Shown here: one piece after another, positions 1 to 12,934 of the stretch
Numbering within the stretch: the first letter of the stretch is position 1
How the letters are laid out: each line of letters begins with the position of its first letter
Program-made: the position numbers and the translations under genes
NCBI GenBank assembly: GCA_010093705.1
Contig: MU006098.1
Coordinates: 169,981 to 233,980, forward strand
Origin: Patellaria atrata CBS 101060
Taxonomy: Eukaryota
Reading direction: 5' to 3'
DNA: 64,000 nucleotides
The notes under the pieces: generated by a model
What the model was told of the DNA's origin: nothing
Databases searched by the model: none
What the model saw: only the letters and a program-made list of their open reading frames with translations

Positions 1-2086
1 AACCGGAGTACCTGAGATAAATAGGTCCCCACTCAAGAATGTGACTGTTTCTTCATTTGAGAGAGCGATATCTGATGAGCGTGTACTGTCTCAAATAATG
101 CACCCCTCTCATGATCCTGTTGAGGAGCATGAGAAGGACTCACTCGATAGCTCCTCTACGGAAAGGATGGACAGCGCTGACCCGGGTACCGTAGTAACAG
201 GAATGCTTATTGAAGCTTGTAGAACTTTTAGAATGAATCTAGGGAAAGTCCAACTTATGTGAGTAAATTCTCATATGAGATACTGCTATTTTTTTGATCT
301 AGTCGCGCTGGATTATCGCTAAGAGGGGATCCTTTCATTAATATGGGCCTAGCCACGAATGAAGAAATGCCATCGTTGATATTGTGGTTTTACTACTCAC
401 TGGAGATATTCTGCTGACTGGCTTGCGCCTGCTAGGATCGATAGATATTTCGAGAATATGACATCCTTCTCTTTGTTTCGTCGACCAGCTTTCGACACAA
501 AACTCCAAGGGATCAAAACCCAACGTCATGCAGAGGCGCTCCTAGCTGCAATGTTTTCGTTCTCCGCACGTTTCTGTAGTGATGCTGAACTCAGACGGAC
601 AGGTGATGAGACAATGCCAGCTACCGAATACTTTCACAAGCTTGCGAAGATAATGCTAGACAGTTGTCTGGATAGTTTCGTAGAAGATACACCCCCTTTA
701 TGTCTGCTACAAGCTTTAATTCTCTTAACCTTCCAACAGTTGATCGACGGAGTGCGAGGGCGAGCTTGGAGATCTCTCGGGACTTGTGTCCGGATTGCCC
801 ATGAGCATAGCCTACATCTCATTGATCTGGAACGGAGTAAGAAATCTGGTGTTGATCTTGACGTATCGCAATGGATCTTGGATGAAGAGCGGAGAAGAGC
901 TTGGTGGGTCATCTGGGAATTTGACGTCTTCGCTAGTACAGTCAGGAAACTACCTACAGCTATCGACTGGGCTCAGAATAATACCTGGCTTCCGGTGGAT
1001 GATGAGGCCTGGTATGCCGGAATCTACCGACCAAGTTGCGTTTTGGCAATAGATCCAGCCATCCGATGGAAACAACTAGAGAGCAGTGGAAATCAGAGCG
1101 CTAAAGCGTGGTTTATCGTGGTAAATTCACTCATGCGAAGCGCCCAACTCGTATCATATCCGCAGTTCTTTTCGCATTCCAGTCGGATAATGTTAGACTT
1201 GGAGAGTCAAAGACCATCCGCTGAAGGGATTACTCTATTACCAGAACTCACAGATACCGCTCAAATGGACCTGGATATACTGGCCAACTCACTTTGCTGC
1301 GTCATCATTGCTCTACCACCTGGTTTAGCTTTCAGGGGCGAAGCACTCAACTTCGCTTACTATCAAACCGCTCCAGTTCTTCCGAACTCTTATCAACAAG
1401 CATTTGACACGTACAGTTTGCACATAATGATTCAACTTACGCGCTTTATGATATACCACAACCACGTATCACGCCTCTCATGTAACAACACCTCGGTCTC
1501 TACTCCCGGTTCCTCACAATCACTCGGAACATCGCCCACCATCAATTCGGCGCCACCAAAAACTATCTCACCTTCCGCGCGTGCAGCATGGAATCACTAT
1601 CTTACGGCAGCATCTGAGATTGTATCTCTCCTACGATCATCTCCCCCCTCGCACGTACAACACGTAAATCCCTTTCTCGGAAGCACCATCTGGCTTACCG
1701 CCGCCACCCAGGTCGTATACCGATTTTTCGACCCCCCTGCGCATCAACGCCGAGCAATAGACTCAAATCTGGACCTTCTACGCCTGACCTTCAACCGCTA
1801 CGTAGCCTTCTGGAACATTTCAAAGGCGTTACAGGAGAACTTAGAAGGTGTGGAAAGGAAGCTAGAGCGATTGCGGCGTCACGAGCAGAAAGTCCAGACG
1901 GAGCAGAAGAAGGATGAGCAGGTGCCCTTGGGAATTGATGGAATGATGTATGGAACTGGTACGACTAATTGGACTCCGGGCATGGCTTGGAATCTTAATT
2001 CGAGCATTTTTGAGCTCCCGGATCCTGCTGGTAATGCGATGGATTATTTGGGGTTCGATATGGATGAACTGTTTTCCTACAATTGA
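1..2086 (+). CDS. Fungal-specific transcription factor (Fungal_trans middle-homology domain; Zn2Cys6 domain presumably upstream of the window), 5'-partial
   Basis: ORF 458-2086 has 'LCLLQALILLTF...RAWRSLGTCVRIAHEHSLHLID...EERRRAWWVIWEFDVFAS', typical of Fungal_trans. Upstream exons join via introns 259-302 (GTGAGT..TAG) and ~384-435 (GCTGAC branch), giving 'LIDRYFENMTSFSLFRRPAF'. Confidence 0.85.
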
Positions 2087-7500: not shown

Positions 7501-10218
7501 TTTTTCTCATTCTGTGGGATTGGTTCAGCAAGTCCATAGATCTGATATTTTACACCCAATGAGGAAAAAGAATATTAACCAGAGGCTTAATATTTTGGGT
7601 AAATGTTCAGGTCGACAACGACAATTTTGAAACGCGAACCGGGCCAAGATTACCAGAATCTGAAGACCTTCCAGAAGCATTAACCGATGGCGAGTAATGT
7701 CTCTGGTACTAAAAGTACATAGTCCGATCGGACCTCCGTCTGATTCGCAGACGGTTAAGCCAACAGGAGTTTGTGTAAAGTAAATAGCGACCGGACAGCA
7801 TGATTCTACATCCTCCGGAGCTCACCATATCATTCCTTCTTGCCCTTCTTTTGCGAATTTGCAGTATGCAGGGTCTCCATAGCAACCTAAGCCTGATGTT
7901 TCTGAATCACACTGGCCGCAGCGGTTGACCTCCCACGGGCTCCCACGTTGTCAGTTGGGGCACCGCCTATCGAGCGCAAGGACCCGCGCAGATTTTTTGC
8001 TTTTGGAAAAGAAACGCGATCCGTCCACTCTGATAGGAAGATAAGACGCTGAAAAGAAAAGAGAGAACCCACTCCTGAGAGGATTTCAGGATACCGTGAG
8101 TGTGGAAACACTTCCCAGCACCGCAGCTGTGGACTTGCTCACTGGCTGACGGGACGTTGGGCTTGTGAGATTGTGATTTGGAGATCATCTTTTAAGGTGT
8201 CCATCGGGGAAGCTGATCCCGACGCTTAGAAGGAGATTTTGGCACACGGTATGTGGGTATCTGGCGTTAATTCTAAGATTCTTAAGATTCTAGCTTGGAG
8301 GGGATTGATTCAGCTAGAATCAGCTAAGGCATCATCCCGACCGCCTATCCTCATCTATTTCTGTTGAGAAGATGCTGATGCTCACCTCAGGAAAGTAATA
8401 AGTCAGGTAAGTGTCGCGGTTACTCAGTCATTGTCTGACACGTAGACGAGCATCACACCTCACCGTGCGGCGTGCGGCGTCTGCAGCGTATCACTAAGTC
8501 TGATTTGCGTCAGTCAGAGAGGGTAATGAAACGAAAATGATTTGAATTAGGCGACTGCAAAGATACGTTGTCTCTGGCAATTAATTGATATGTGCCGCCA
8601 AAGAAAAAAGTGGCGGCCGATCAGAGGTTACGGAAAAGAGCGTTGTAATTTGGCTGGCTATCCTTGAGGGCTTGTGATATGGCGGATTAGCCCCCGTCGC
8701 GGGAAGGCTGTACCTGCATCCGTTGATCATCTACCAACAAATGCAGCAACGTTGAGCGTGGTGGGCTATAATTACAAGTACAGTACATACGAGGTACTAC
8801 TGTATCGAGGGAGGTGGAGTGGAGGGGACTATCGAAGGAGGTAGTGGGGTCGACGCAAAGCTGGCTTATTTGCATGATTCCACAGACTGACAGAAGAGTA
8901 CTAGAATACGGTAACAGTATTCCATAGAAATGATAGAATTCATAATGATTAGTGACACGTTAAGGAAAAACGATAATTATGGAATATGGGATGTGATGAA
9001 GCCGGTAAAGTAGCGACTAGTAAGCTGTAGGCGCGTTGAAGGGGGGGGGATACGGGACCCAGTTGCCTCAGTAGGCCATACGGGTGGCTTCTTTCCTTCT
9101 GCGGTTGTTCTAGCGGGCGGGTTTTAGCCTTGGGCTGCAGGTACAAGTCAGGGGTTGCTGGCAAGCCCGTTGTGTCGGGTAGGATGGCTCCCTATGCCGT
9201 GTAGATCCTGGTAATTAGGGCTCCCTGATGGCTCCTTTGATGGAAGATGCCAGCAGTCCCAGCAACCGGCTAGGATGATAACCAGTGTTAACCAGTACGG
9301 CTCATAGCGGCCACGAAAGTTACCAGAACTGGTTCAGAAACAGGCCTCAGGAGGTCAAAGCAGGTCAAGCTCATCCAAAAGGCTCTCAGCCCGGCTCACC
9401 ATGCCCGGCCGCTTGTGTTTCAAACTGTCTTCCGCGAAAGAGCAAGAAAAGGGCACAGACAGGGGATAGAAGCCGTCGGTTGAGCTTCACGTCACTTTTG
9501 CCCAAATTTCATTTCCCAGTTCAATTCTTTTTTGGCGGCCATGTTTCTTCCCCCCTTTAACCTAACTCTTAGCCAGGAACACAGGGCACATTTTTCGTTG
9601 ATATTTATATTCCTCTCTCTCCCTTGGAAACTTGGATTGAATTCTCCTGGTGCTTGACTTTTCTTCCAACGTTCACACTCTACCTTACCTTGACCTCGAT
9701 AGTCACACGCCTTACAAAGACCCCTGCTACCTTAAGGCTATCCCGTTCAATATCTCTGCCTTACACCTTTGCCTTAGGACCTGGAAATCATATAGCCTCG
9801 GCCTACTTGCATACAACCTACTGCATAGGCGATCTACCGAAATACTTCGAGGCCCTAATTACCACGCATCTGCTGCAGGCGGAAATTATAAGCTCTTACA
9901 CACCATTCCGTACATACCACCCATTATCCATTAAGGATTTTAGGATTCCGACACTTCCCCTCACCTCCATTTAATCATTTGCTTTTTTTGGGCGGACAAT
10001 CCACATCTCCCATCTTACAATCCGGACATCGGACTTCTTTGAGCAGTGCTTTCACAAGCCTCAGCTCTAGCTGCTTTTAATAGTAGCAGTCATCTATCAA
10101 TCCTACAAACTCGTCTGTGAGTCATAGAATGCGCCCTTAATAAGCTGACTGCGTTCTGGGATCATATCAACTAACGGGGTATTTATTAGAAGCACTGCAT
10201 TCCCATCCGTCCACCACT

Positions 10219-10320
10219 ATGATCACTCGGGACGCAACCACAAACATGAACATGGGTCGTGGTGCATACGACACAACCGGCACTCCCAAGCCTCCTCCGC
10301 CGCCCCCAAAGCGCCGATAG
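10219..10320 (+). CDS. Putative 33-aa Pro-rich microprotein MITRDATTNMNMGRGAYDTTGTPKPPPPPPKRR (later in-frame Mets possible)
   Basis: ATG at 10219, TAG at 10318-10320. Flanked by canonical introns at 10117-10189 (GTGAGT..CTAAC..TAG) and 10421-10509 (GTGGGT..CTGAC..CAG). No longer convincing ORF nearby. Confidence 0.6.
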   Translation: MITRDATTNMNMGRGAYDTTGTPKPPPPPPKRR

Positions 10321-11753
10321 CATTCTGTCATTGCTATCACACCATCAAAAACAAACCTGTCGCAGGCGCACTGGCAGTAATTTCCCACAGGTCAAATCGA
10401 GGGTTGACGAGGTCGCGCAGGTGGGTTTCCTCAAACATCAGAGGGTACCTCGAAAGAGTACCTTGTACTATCCAGTCTAAGCAATATCACATTCTGACTA
10501 AGCATCCAGAGCTATCCAGTTCAATCCGATTCCGTTGTACCCTTGTATCCGACAGCTCCGCATTCACACACACTACACCGAATATCACATCACATCAAAA
10601 ATTACGTCTGCTTCTCAACACCACCAACTATCAACCTAAGATATTTTAATCGAGCGACAATTCTTCGACTTTCTGCGGCATGTTTAATACCCCTTCAGCG
10701 ATTATTCAAGCGCATTTTCCTTTTCCAAGGCATCGGTCGGCACTGTATCATTAACCTTTCTCGCGACAAGTTTTTCAGCGAACGATTCCTCCTTGCTTCA
10801 TTTTCCACCACTTATAAGCGGCGGGTCTTCAACAAAAGTCATTTTTGGCGTTACTAGATTATGGAAGCTCAGGCACAGGGATACCAAAAATTCGGATTTC
10901 ATACAGGGGGACATTCATCGGATAGACATATTTTCAATTCGCGGCTCACGCTGCAAAACACAGGGCTTAGGTTCTTGTACGATAAGCCCGGAGCTGGGAA
11001 AGTTTGCGTCGGGTTTATGGCATGCGGCGCAAACCCATTTCATCATCGGGAACGGATATCAAAAGTGTAGACGGGAGCGGTCAATTTCAATCGCTCGCTT
11101 TTGATTACTTCGATTAGAGCTTGAGGCTTTAGATCTGGTTCTGTGTATCGTTAGACAGTAGATTTTAGCGGATCAACTTCGCAGTAATCAATGGATTTTC
11201 ATACGGTATCCACTATTCCCGAAGACAACTTTTTTGATATATTGAGAATCTTTCGTCTTCTGCAAGGCGGTCATACAAGACTTGTCTCCCTGGCGAGGTT
11301 AGGTGTTTCCTTCACGTCACTTTCCATCCCATACAGGTCTCTCCCGTCCACCCTATCTTCGTTTGCAACTCTGTGTGTGTGCCTTTGTGTAGTTCCTCGC
11401 GTAAAGAGCATTTCTGTTTGTTCACCTCCGATCATCTTGAACCTTGCTTGCACCACTGATGGCTTCACGCCTCCAAGTTAGGAAATTTTATCTTGGCACT
11501 CCACCTTCCCGCAGATTGTAAGCCGCAAAGCCAAAAGCACCCACGCTTGTCCCACCATGAACGTCGCTCCCCTCCCCGGATTTGGTCAACGACGACCTCA
11601 CTTCCTATTGCTTTCGGCTCCAAAATCAACCCACTACCAAAACAATATTTCCAGGACGCCACTGAGTTGTAGCTCCTCATCGCATTCGTAAAGCTTTCAC
11701 TTTGATTTTCTGTACCGCATTGCCCCCGCAAAGAGGAGAGAATTCAAGCCACA

Positions 11754-12934
11754 ATGTCACTCCAAAATTGGCGTACAATTAACGTAGACGCCCTGGATCC
11801 GGACTCGCCTGCCAATTTCGATCTATCCACACTTACACCAGCAGTCAATCCAGTGTCCACCTCCGACGTTCAGAGTCTACAGAACCAGATACGGCAATTA
11901 CTACGAGGAGGCGATAGTGAGGGAGCGCTCAGAGGGGCCTTGGAAAATGTACCATATGGAGCAGATGACAGAGGAAAGGTAGATGAACACTTTATTGGGT
12001 TGGAAAGACACTTGGATGCAACACTTTACTATTACATTGACGATACTACTTCGGCCTCTCCGTTGTTGAGTCAAAGGTGGAACGCCTTCGTTAGGCAGCA
12101 TAGCTGACGAGTACGTATACAGGAAATCCACCTTGCAACCGTCATCGAAATCTTGCAATCCATACGGCAGTCAGAGATGTCACCTATATTGAGTCGAATA
12201 TATCAATCTGAAGGGGGAACAGAAGTATTGGATGCACTCATGAAATACATGTAGGTCGCTAGTCGTAATTTGGACGAGTCATACTATCTATGGCTTCCTA
12301 TCATATCAATCCGACCGCTCAGCCGTCGAAACGCGAATCCTCACATACGTGAAACGGCTTCATTCAAAGCTAATATATTTCTACGCGAGCAGTTACAAGG
12401 GTATGGCTCAGAGTACTCATGCCCAATCAGCAAAACAGGTCCAGCCTCAATCAACAGGTTTCTCACAAATTCACTCAAGAGGTGGTGGCGAAGGTGGTGG
12501 CCAGGCGATGAGTGTACTCTTGAGTTGGCATGAGAAGGTAAGTAATTCCCGCACATCCGTATAATCCCTCATCTATATCGTCGAGTCTATTTGCAATAAC
12601 CATACCCTTTCTCTTTCCTCGGGTTCACGTGGCCGTATTCCGCATGACGTCGTAGTTTACCATTCCACACTCCTCCTTACACATTGCCCCACAAACTCAT
12701 TCTTCTTATGGGATTCTTTTGTATCTCTGTTACTCATATCTTGCATCTGTTCTTAGTCTCATCTTGTAAGACCTACCTACTGCGCACAATCTTTGTGCCA
12801 CAGATACATAACTATTCTTCGCGCACATTTCAGAGTACGTGGAAACGGACCCAGCTAACATGATACTTCAGCTTGTAGAGATCGCTGGTCCAGGTAGCAT
12901 AGTCCGGGTGATGTCGGACCGTAGAACAGTCTGA
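11754..12934 (+). CDS. ARC15: ARP2/3 complex subunit 5 (p16-Arc, ARPC5)
   Basis: Exons 11754-11978, 12123-12250, 12393-12537 and 12872-12934 splice in frame: 'MSLQNWRTINVDALDP...ALRGALENVPYG..EIHLATVIEILQSIRQSEM..DALMKYIYKGM..MSVLLSWHEKLVEIAGPGSIVRVMSDRRTV*'. Confidence 0.95.

Follow-up and report, generated by a model that had tools for sequence, protein, structure and literature searches.

A 33-codon open reading frame upstream of ARC15 in Patellaria atrata: a candidate micro-gene conserved among filamentous ascomycetes

Does a 33-codon open reading frame (ORF) lying upstream of the gene for the ARP2/3 subunit ARC15 encode a protein of its own, or does it belong to the leader of its neighbour, to a functional RNA or to chance? 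The locus in question lies in a stretch of 64,000 nucleotides (nt) from the forward strand of Patellaria atrata CBS 101060 (assembly GCA_010093705.1, contig MU006098.1, positions 169,981 to 233,980), here called the window, to which all coordinates refer. An initial annotation, made from the letters alone, had proposed a standalone, spliced microprotein gene with its ORF at 10219–10320, and the frame found there on the + strand indeed reads MITRDATTNMNMGRGAYDTTGTPKPPPPPPKRR in 33 codons, followed by TAG. Comparison with relatives bears the proposal of a standalone gene out: the ORF recurs in them, its codons carry the marks of selection and the gene downstream of it changes, which describes a real, conserved and independently evolving unit. 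On this comparative evidence, we regard the ORF as very probably a bona fide micro-gene.

Conservation of the peptide

The predicted peptide opens with a short, acidic N-terminal part (MIxR[DE]...), continues with an invariant core, N-[M/F]-GRGAYDTTG, and closes with a tail that is basic, rich in Pro and Lys and of the polyproline-II type. When back-translated, the core is found a single time in the window and in none of 100 shuffles. Homologues were searched with the window's 58-codon stop-to-stop frame around the ORF as the query. Among database proteins of 31–102 residues, all 15 candidates found carry the motif; five NCBI-named short proteins come from Alternaria arborescens, Saccharata proteae, Microthyrium microscopicum, Pleomassaria siparia and Epicoccum nigrum. 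The N-terminal extensions of these short database proteins are mutually unrelated, and conservation starts exactly at MI.R[ED]. Between 103 and 2000 residues, 18 proteins, including those of Bipolaris, Exserohilum, Cercospora, Stagonosporopsis, Lindgomyces, Bimuria, Dendryphion and Mytilinidion, end at the micro-ORF stop; two further longer proteins have odd tails, and none of the longer proteins has a Pfam domain. The fused long forms, with unrelated, domain-free extensions that run to the same stop, were set aside as gene-prediction artefacts around a real short ORF.

Metagenome contigs were scanned with the pattern NMGRGAYD, which matched 163 stretches; 136 of them were confirmed and the best 80 were used as loci, all of them chosen by the core motif and many closely related. 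A complete ORF of 30–35 codons is present in 70 of these best 80, with the consensus M-[IVL]-x-R-[DE]-x(4-7)-N-[MF]-GRGAYDTTG-[TV]-x-KP followed by a Pro/Lys tail. The first ATG is missing in eight loci (L003, L005, L007, L012, L014, L022, L026 and L066), whose tails are longer and unrelated; L028 runs into a contig end, and in L063 a disruption abolishes the frame after TT. The eight loci and L063 may represent a divergent subfamily that starts at an inner Met, paralogues or pseudogenes.

In the core codons, variation falls almost wholly on the third position. Over the 11 core codons of 61 distinct DNA strings (one cut string dropped), the entropy is 0.05, 0.01 and 1.27 bits at codon positions 1, 2 and 3, respectively, and the core Arg is encoded by both CGN and AGR. 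As NMGRGAYD was the search pattern, the invariance of these residues is by construction; the residues outside the pattern provide independent evidence and, at the level of the sequence, a fair test of selection. The core residues outside the pattern are kept as T in 61/61, T in 60/61 and G in 60/61 strings, each with all four codons. In 53 distinct complete ORFs, selected by a Met 6–15 codons upstream and a length below 40 residues, so that start and length are partly given by construction, I2 is kept in 49 (ATC 28, ATT 11, ATA 10), R4 in 48 (AGA 33, CGG 7, AGG 6, CGA 2) and D/E5 in 46. The same ORFs show no conservation in the four codons ahead of the ATG (−4 to −1), and their stop codons are TAA in 38, TAG in nine and TGA in six. 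The Nei-Gojobori ratio of non-synonymous to synonymous differences (pN/pS) is 0.28 for 11 codons that the pattern does not cover (48 distinct strings; pS 0.70, saturated) and 0.12 on the eight best-kept codons. At the DNA level, blastn of 9000–11760 against the loci aligns only 10243–10322, plus one block of 62 nt. The ORF at 10219–10320 displays the features of a gene for a small-ORF microprotein, with fewer than 100 codons, a start and stop that are both kept and purifying selection on its amino acids. By these codon comparisons, the ORF evolves under selection at the protein level.

The part of the peptide that had drawn attention in the initial annotation was its proline run. It is GRGAYDTTG that proves invariant, and not the prolines: the Pro-rich tail is kept in composition and not in sequence, reading for instance PKPSPTTTPPTK in Bipolaris and PKPRPKPTTKRR in the metagenome locus L001.

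A chance open frame accompanied by chance matches to splice signals would be another account of the locus, and the G-poor composition of the strand does yield long stop-free frames. One such frame, of 166 codons at 10149–10649 (+), has no ATG and is out of register with the micro-ORF; it is a by-product of this composition, not a gene. Against chance stand the codon-position pattern, the kept start and stop, the pN/pS values and hundreds of relatives across fungal classes, and we give this explanation practically no weight.

The breadth of the family was assessed with a profile of 42 distinct peptides, searched against 1.84 billion protein-cluster representatives, which retrieved 223 representatives at E <= 1e-3, 82 of them also passing E <= 1e-10. 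In the new proteins listed, 129 in number, the motif occurs 142 times, and 97 of these occurrences end 17–22 residues past the Arg. GRG is preceded by M in 92, F in 30 and another residue in 20 occurrences, so the Met at this position is a residue and not an obligatory start; RG is followed by A in 123, S in 11 and G in six. In 11 of the 129 new representatives, two or three modules stand in tandem. Within each module, GRG[AS]YDT[TS]G is preceded by an acidic spacer and an aromatic or hydrophobic residue and followed by a tail rich in Pro and Lys. All tandem members with a name belong to the Xylariales (Xylaria arbuscula, Rostrohypoxylon terebratum, Annulohypoxylon nitens and Anthostomella pinea). 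Such in-frame reiteration of the module argues for a peptide product. In tandem members P0156, P0158, P0162, P0184, P0193, P0194 and others, the spacer often ends in W, F or Y just before GRG.

Single-copy members include Sordaria macrospora SMACR_12796 (33 residues), Colletotrichum tanaceti and C. abscissum (32 residues), Sclerotinia sclerotiorum (37 residues), and further proteins of Thermothelomyces, Trichoderma harzianum, Cytospora mali, Neopestalotiopsis, Monilinia fructicola and Pseudogymnoascus. Neurospora crassa NCU03451 (P0189) is likewise single-copy, with an annotated model of 84 residues that extends beyond the conserved stop. The named members span Dothideomycetes, Sordariomycetes and Leotiomycetes; the class assignment was checked for four of the genera. 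Among the metagenome loci, the Vps21 gene that neighbours L015 is closest to that of lichen-forming Lecanoromycetes (87% to Heterodermia), and L011, L050 and L062 group likewise; L002, L016, L027, L052, L060 and L078 remain unplaced by their neighbour gene. All database entries for the family are called "hypothetical" or "predicted protein", in agreement with the mention in the initial annotation of similar MGRG.Y micro-ORFs among fungal hypothetical proteins. The family is annotated sporadically, usually with spurious extensions.

The micro-ORF and its downstream gene

In the window, the next gene is ARC15 (Pfam P16-Arc) at 11754–12934, on the same strand, with its ATG 1434 nt downstream of the micro-ORF. 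ARC15 is also the next gene on the same strand in 17 loci, at 1.09–2.08 kb. In 18 other loci, this place is taken by a Ras-family GTPase (Pfam Ras, 1e-39 to 1e-40), named Vps21 or Rab5-like Ypt51 by the sources; no Vps21/Rab5 gene is present in the window. In four loci, ARC15 lies on the other strand or kilobases away. Since the gene downstream is either ARC15 or Vps21/Rab5, the micro-ORF unit moves as its own entity, and the comparison of loci establishes its independence from the downstream gene at the level of gene order. The link to ARP2/3 that the proximity of ARC15 had brought to mind finds no support in this comparison, as ARC15 directly follows the micro-ORF in one of two synteny classes only.

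In L011, L067, L071 and L002, ARC15 lies within 4–9 kb of the micro-ORF, on the opposite strand or flank, and Vps21 follows the micro-ORF directly, which looks like conservation of a neighbourhood with inversions rather than functional pairing.

These arrangements bear on the possibility that the micro-ORF is an upstream ORF (uORF) in a long leader of the ARC15 mRNA, as its strand and the recurrence of the distance in the ARC15 class would allow. A uORF of this kind is hard to reconcile with the Vps21/Rab5 loci and with those in which ARC15 is inverted or remote. Seven ATGs, moreover, separate the micro-ORF stop from the ARC15 ATG in the window, and relatives show no depletion of ATG past the stop. 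The arginine attenuator peptide of arg-2/CPA1 offers a close comparison: it also has a few dozen codons, is conserved as a peptide across fungal classes and lies near the 5′ end of a long RNA. It differs in that the attenuator always precedes the same main ORF, whereas here there is no conserved downstream ORF and the microprotein module can repeat in tandem. A place in the leader of one conserved main ORF, the mark of uORFs and arrest peptides, is not what the ARC15 (17) and Vps21/Rab5 (18) loci display. We consider an ARC15 uORF very improbable.

The distribution of ATG triplets points in the same direction. The candidate spliced leader (9544–10116 joined to 10190–10218; 602 nt) contains no ATG, with a mean of 5.07 in 5000 dinucleotide-preserving shuffles and a probability of zero of 0.0014. 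The region 9500–11000 is G-poor on the + strand (GC skew −0.28 and −0.20), as is the leader itself (−0.28). Among 42 representatives with distinct peptides, the density of ATG per 100 nt is 0.12 against 1.04 expected between −400 and −200 (33 relatives; CAT control, 2.33), 0.77 against 1.12 expected between −600 and −400, and 1.36 against 1.22 expected, hence not depleted, in the first 200 nt past the stop. This profile fits an AUG-free leader, a micro-ORF that is the first and only ORF and an ordinary 3′ untranslated region (UTR); it does not fit a leader that delivers ribosomes to a downstream start.

Intron-like elements and the conserved 3′ region

The two intron-like elements that flank the ORF lie exactly where the initial annotation had placed them, with the signals read there (Table 1). 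Removal of the first creates an in-frame TAA at the junction directly upstream of the ORF, which closes any upstream extension of the frame. Relatives were scanned with a strict pattern, GT[AG]NG[TC] followed by NCT[AG]A[CT] and YAG, and the reverse complement of the same segments served as control. An upstream element is found in 36 of 51 distinct loci with at least 200 nt of upstream sequence (control, 5/51); its length is 54–136 nt, and its 3′ end lies 8–53 nt before the ATG, with one at 91. A downstream element that begins less than 250 nt past the stop is present in 33 of 53 loci with at least 300 nt downstream (control, 10/53), with lengths of 49–89 nt and one of 168; it typically starts about 100–180 nt past the stop, and does so at 55 nt or beyond in 32 of the 33 and at 100 nt or beyond in 29. 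The intron signals are therefore conserved in position, as judged from this pattern search, and the proposal of a spliced locus gains support from the conservation of both predicted UTR intron positions. None of the loci compared included cDNA-like contigs lacking the introns or poly(A) tails. The two sequencing runs found to contain the stretch are made up of DNA contigs identical to the window, perhaps its very source, and carry no information on expression.

The 5′ splice site of the first element reads GTGAGTCA at 10118–10124, and the same string occurs in nine of 37 predicted upstream elements of relatives. The k-mer TGAGTCA, which is also the AP-1/Gcn4-type site, occurs at −450 to −100 in 12 of 33 loci; its recurrence may reflect no more than shared splice-site ancestry.

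The position of the second element recalls mRNAs that are targets of nonsense-mediated decay (NMD), for which an intron at least 50 nt past the stop is expected; the predicted distance in the window is 100 nt. The known examples with 3′ UTR introns differ from the present case in that they encode proteins of ordinary size. They are similar in having an intron well past the stop, a position that is here predicted and kept in relatives. In Neurospora, 3′ UTR introns can trigger NMD according to PMC7746235, which cites Zhang and Sachs (2015).

Table 1. Coordinates of the micro-ORF and of the candidate features around it in the window
Feature	Position	Strand	Remarks
Candidate 5′ UTR exon 1	9544–10116	+	Nearest upstream ATG at 9541; no ATG, G-poor, C-rich
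Intron-like element 1, 5′ UTR	10117–10189	+	GTGAGT ... ACTAAC ... TAG; ends 29 nt before the ATG
Microprotein ORF	10219–10320	+	33 codons and TAG; invariant core NMGRGAYDTTG at 10249–10281
Intron-like element 2, 3′ UTR	10421–10509	+	GTGGGT ... CTGAC ... CAG; starts 100 nt past the stop
3′ block TTTAATACCCC	10683–10693	+	TTTTAAT in 15/36 and AATACCC in 13/36 relatives at +160 to +500; collinear
3′ block TCCTTGC	10790	+	Conserved block downstream of the ORF
3′ block CAAAAGT..T-rich..GGCGTT..TAGA..GG..GATACCA	10833–10886	+	From alignments and nhmmer profile
3′ block TAGAC..TTCnAn..TCGCGG	10923–10944	+	Common to ARC15-class and Vps21-class relatives
PUF-like motif UGUACGAUA / TGTACGATA	10976–10984	+	Strand-biased in relatives
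Last 3′ blocks GAGCTTGAGGC ... GTGTATCGTTAGAC	11117–11156	+	From alignment; partly complementary to 10866–10874

Downstream of the ORF, a series of short conserved blocks that the initial annotation had overlooked follows in the same order in both synteny classes. Within the third block, GGCGTT and GATACC do not vary among 21 sequences drawn from both classes. An nhmmer profile of this block matches 26 of 81 sources, once each, always on the + strand and 268–725 nt past the stop, with no other match in 610 kb; most matches are training sequences, and the lichen-type loci are unmatched. The motif UGUACNWUA, which presumably resembles the sites of PUF proteins, occurs at +100 to +1000 in 16 of 36 relatives on the + strand and in one of 36 on the − strand; for the stricter UGUAYAWUA, the counts are 12/36 and 1/36. 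This bias argues that the region acts as + strand RNA. Conserved blocks that extend to 11156 fit the earlier estimate, itself read from the sequence, that the unit ends near 11200.

The indels within the blocks are not multiples of three, so the blocks are taken to be non-coding. A second coding ORF in the 3′ region (e.g. 10861–11070) was rejected on the same grounds and for lack of conserved ATGs. A telomerase RNA was likewise rejected, no template repeat being found near any locus, and a search of 8500–12000 against Rfam returned no match at E <= 1. Pairing between block 3 and block 5 was evaluated as a duplex, with a z score of −0.73 in the window and of −1.7 to −3.7 in five close relatives, the sole loci in which it reaches significance; RNAalifold on the 3′ blocks gives −4.86 kcal/mol with 15 pairs. 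A long-range interaction of 11117–11156 with 10866–10874 is only suggestive.

This 3′ region raises the alternative that the micro-ORF acts in cis, as a regulatory or sensor ORF whose translation, through the nascent peptide, sets the stability of an RNA with a functional 3′ region, the peptide having no role in trans. Stalling on the Pro-rich run and termination upstream of an exon junction are examples of how this could work, as proline runs slow elongation. Such a design would account for a short ORF near the 5′ end followed by at least 600 nt with non-coding blocks common to both synteny classes, and for an intron-like element at least 55 nt past the stop in nearly all predictions (32/33); arrest peptides are likewise conserved at the peptide level. 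It is at odds, however, with where conservation falls, since the proline run varies (PKPSPTTTPPTK in Bipolaris, PKPRPKPTTKRR in L001) and GRGAYDTTG does not, and in-frame tandem modules in Xylariales are hard to explain for a stalling peptide. The restriction of the block-3 profile to 26/81 sources, the weak evidence for RNA structure and the empty Rfam search also speak against it. A sensor ORF accordingly appears improbable to us.

Further upstream, the 7.4 kb or so between 2087 and 9540 contain no stop-free frame of at least 125 codons on either strand and no blastn match to related loci. The initial annotation had read heavy regulation into this gene-free DNA; the stretch is indeed free of ORFs, but nothing in it matches relatives. 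The sign of the GC skew changes near 9500, and the nearest recognisable upstream gene is a 568-codon open frame at 380–2086 (+) whose Pfam match, Fungal_trans (2.6e-20), denotes a fungal-specific transcription factor domain.

Possible action of the peptide

The 33-residue microprotein is most likely unfolded, as judged from an AlphaFold2 prediction, with 42 sequences as input, that revealed no secondary structure (mean predicted local distance difference test score 74.9; predicted template-modelling score 0.21). The sequences contain neither a signal peptide nor a CaaX box by inspection, and the forms of 30–35 residues lack a hydrophobic N-terminus. Pfam returned nothing for the family beyond a sub-threshold FNIP_N match that falls on a spurious extension, a profile search of the PDB gave no match for the peptide family and the ESM Atlas gave no usable one.

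We consider it likely that the locus is an independent micro-gene whose spliced mRNA yields an unfolded peptide of 33 residues that acts in trans under post-transcriptional control. Transcription, splicing, translation, action in trans and control by NMD or PUF proteins are steps that we infer from sequence features. The spliced mRNA would have the microprotein as its one product. Acting in trans, the peptide would be a ligand of the short-linear-motif type for a partner that is kept across the filamentous ascomycetes, with the invariant N-[M/F]-GRGAYDTTG as the contact and the tail as an auxiliary anchor, either of the PxxPxK/R type or electrostatic. The mRNA, in turn, would be under tight post-transcriptional control, to which four features may contribute: a leader that is long, free of AUG and interrupted by an intron immediately in front of the start codon; a second intron, some 100 nt or more past the stop, an arrangement able to mark the mRNA for NMD; the conserved 3′ UTR blocks; and the PUF-like site. 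The more specific proposal, namely that the peptide docks through a short linear motif on a conserved partner, helped by an auxiliary polyproline-II or basic anchor, is derived from an invariant motif of 9–11 residues in an unfolded, charge-polarised peptide, from a tail kept in composition only and from the repetition of the module; we put it forward tentatively, at somewhat less than even chance.

The initial annotation had pointed out that the tail fits a class II SH3-ligand pattern. The string KPPPPPPKR of the window does match both PxxPx[KR] and [KR]xxPxxP, and thus both classes (I and II) of SH3 ligand, and some PxxPx[KR] is present in most relatives. The tail varies in length and sequence, which weakens any specific reading as an SH3 ligand: PPPPKR fits PxxPxK/R, but any Pro/Lys-rich tail would, the tails of some members are not proline-rich and GRGAYDTTG contains no SH3 motif.

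The tandem modules also invite a different view of the product, namely a precursor that gives rise to a smaller bioactive peptide by cleavage or modification, either pro-hormone-like or like the ribosomally synthesised and post-translationally modified peptides (RiPPs), with the repeats of Xylariales as multiple cores. Length (30–35 residues) and lack of a signal peptide resemble the MSDIN-type precursors of amatoxins and phallotoxins, which have some 33–37 residues and prolines near the centre. Two or three modules with acidic spacers (11/129 representatives), ending in basic residues that are sometimes KR or RR, are reminiscent of the multi-repeat precursors cut by Kex2, such as ustiloxin UstA and alpha-pheromone. 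The resemblance to either is incomplete. Conservation is reversed with respect to RiPP precursors: MSDIN precursors, from Agaricales, have conserved flanks and a hypervariable core, whereas the family described here, from Pezizomycotina, has an invariant centre where the core would lie, and its only variable stretch comprises 4–7 residues and is not bounded by Pro. Unlike the Kex2 substrates, its members are mostly single-copy and lack a signal peptide and a hydrophobic N-terminus; KR follows only some modules and the dibasic sites between modules are irregular. There is no CaaX box, no processing-enzyme gene is linked to the locus and the neighbours, ARC15 and Vps21, are housekeeping genes and not tailoring enzymes. 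A precursor of this kind seems to us slightly less probable than a sensor ORF, and both are unlikely.

Several observations weigh against a trans-acting microprotein. The peptide has no relative in Pfam, the PDB or the Atlas and no known partner, and the sequence of its Pro-rich tail is unconserved. Locus counts, ascertained by the core motif and including many close kin, do not represent independent events. The curated NCU03451 model disagrees on the C-terminus (84 residues, against 33 in Sordaria), so that either an intron has been modelled over the stop codon or Neurospora differs. Finally, a short ORF with a long 3′ region and a downstream intron would also be expected of a functional RNA that carries a regulatory or sensing ORF, and the conserved 3′ blocks may be part of such an RNA.

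In the library of papers searched, nothing mentions the core peptide string, 11 locus tags of members or NCU03451, and the gene is not listed in the supplements of PMC6794485, PMC7746235, PMC10578600 and PMC7049704, Sordaria proteogenomics among them. The family is essentially uncharacterised and without a Pfam family. Microprotein genes are a known kind; the GRGAYDTTG family is a new one, unusually deep and unusually well marked. To our knowledge, few microproteins have been conserved for hundreds of millions of years, and almost none in fungi has a known role. Here, at least three named classes of Pezizomycotina share an 11-residue motif without change, and its carriers include the plant pathogens Alternaria, Bipolaris, Cercospora, Colletotrichum and Sclerotinia as well as the genetic models Neurospora and Sordaria.

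The predicted gene structure makes the family a natural test case for how the mRNAs of very short ORFs, by default expected substrates of NMD, are controlled, and the question is directly testable because locus tags exist for orthologues in tractable models (NCU03451, SMACR_12796). More speculatively, and with a likelihood that we hold to be low, only a shade above that of a sensor ORF, the GRGAYDTTG and PK-tail module may be the unit of an undescribed peptide-based regulatory system of all filamentous ascomycetes, in the form of a cytosolic ligand dosed by NMD and PUF proteins or, as the two or three tandem modules of Xylariales suggest, of a pro-peptide cut into signalling peptides. If this were true, the GRGAYDTTG system would be a fungal counterpart of the peptide regulators of animals and plants, missed by annotation pipelines.

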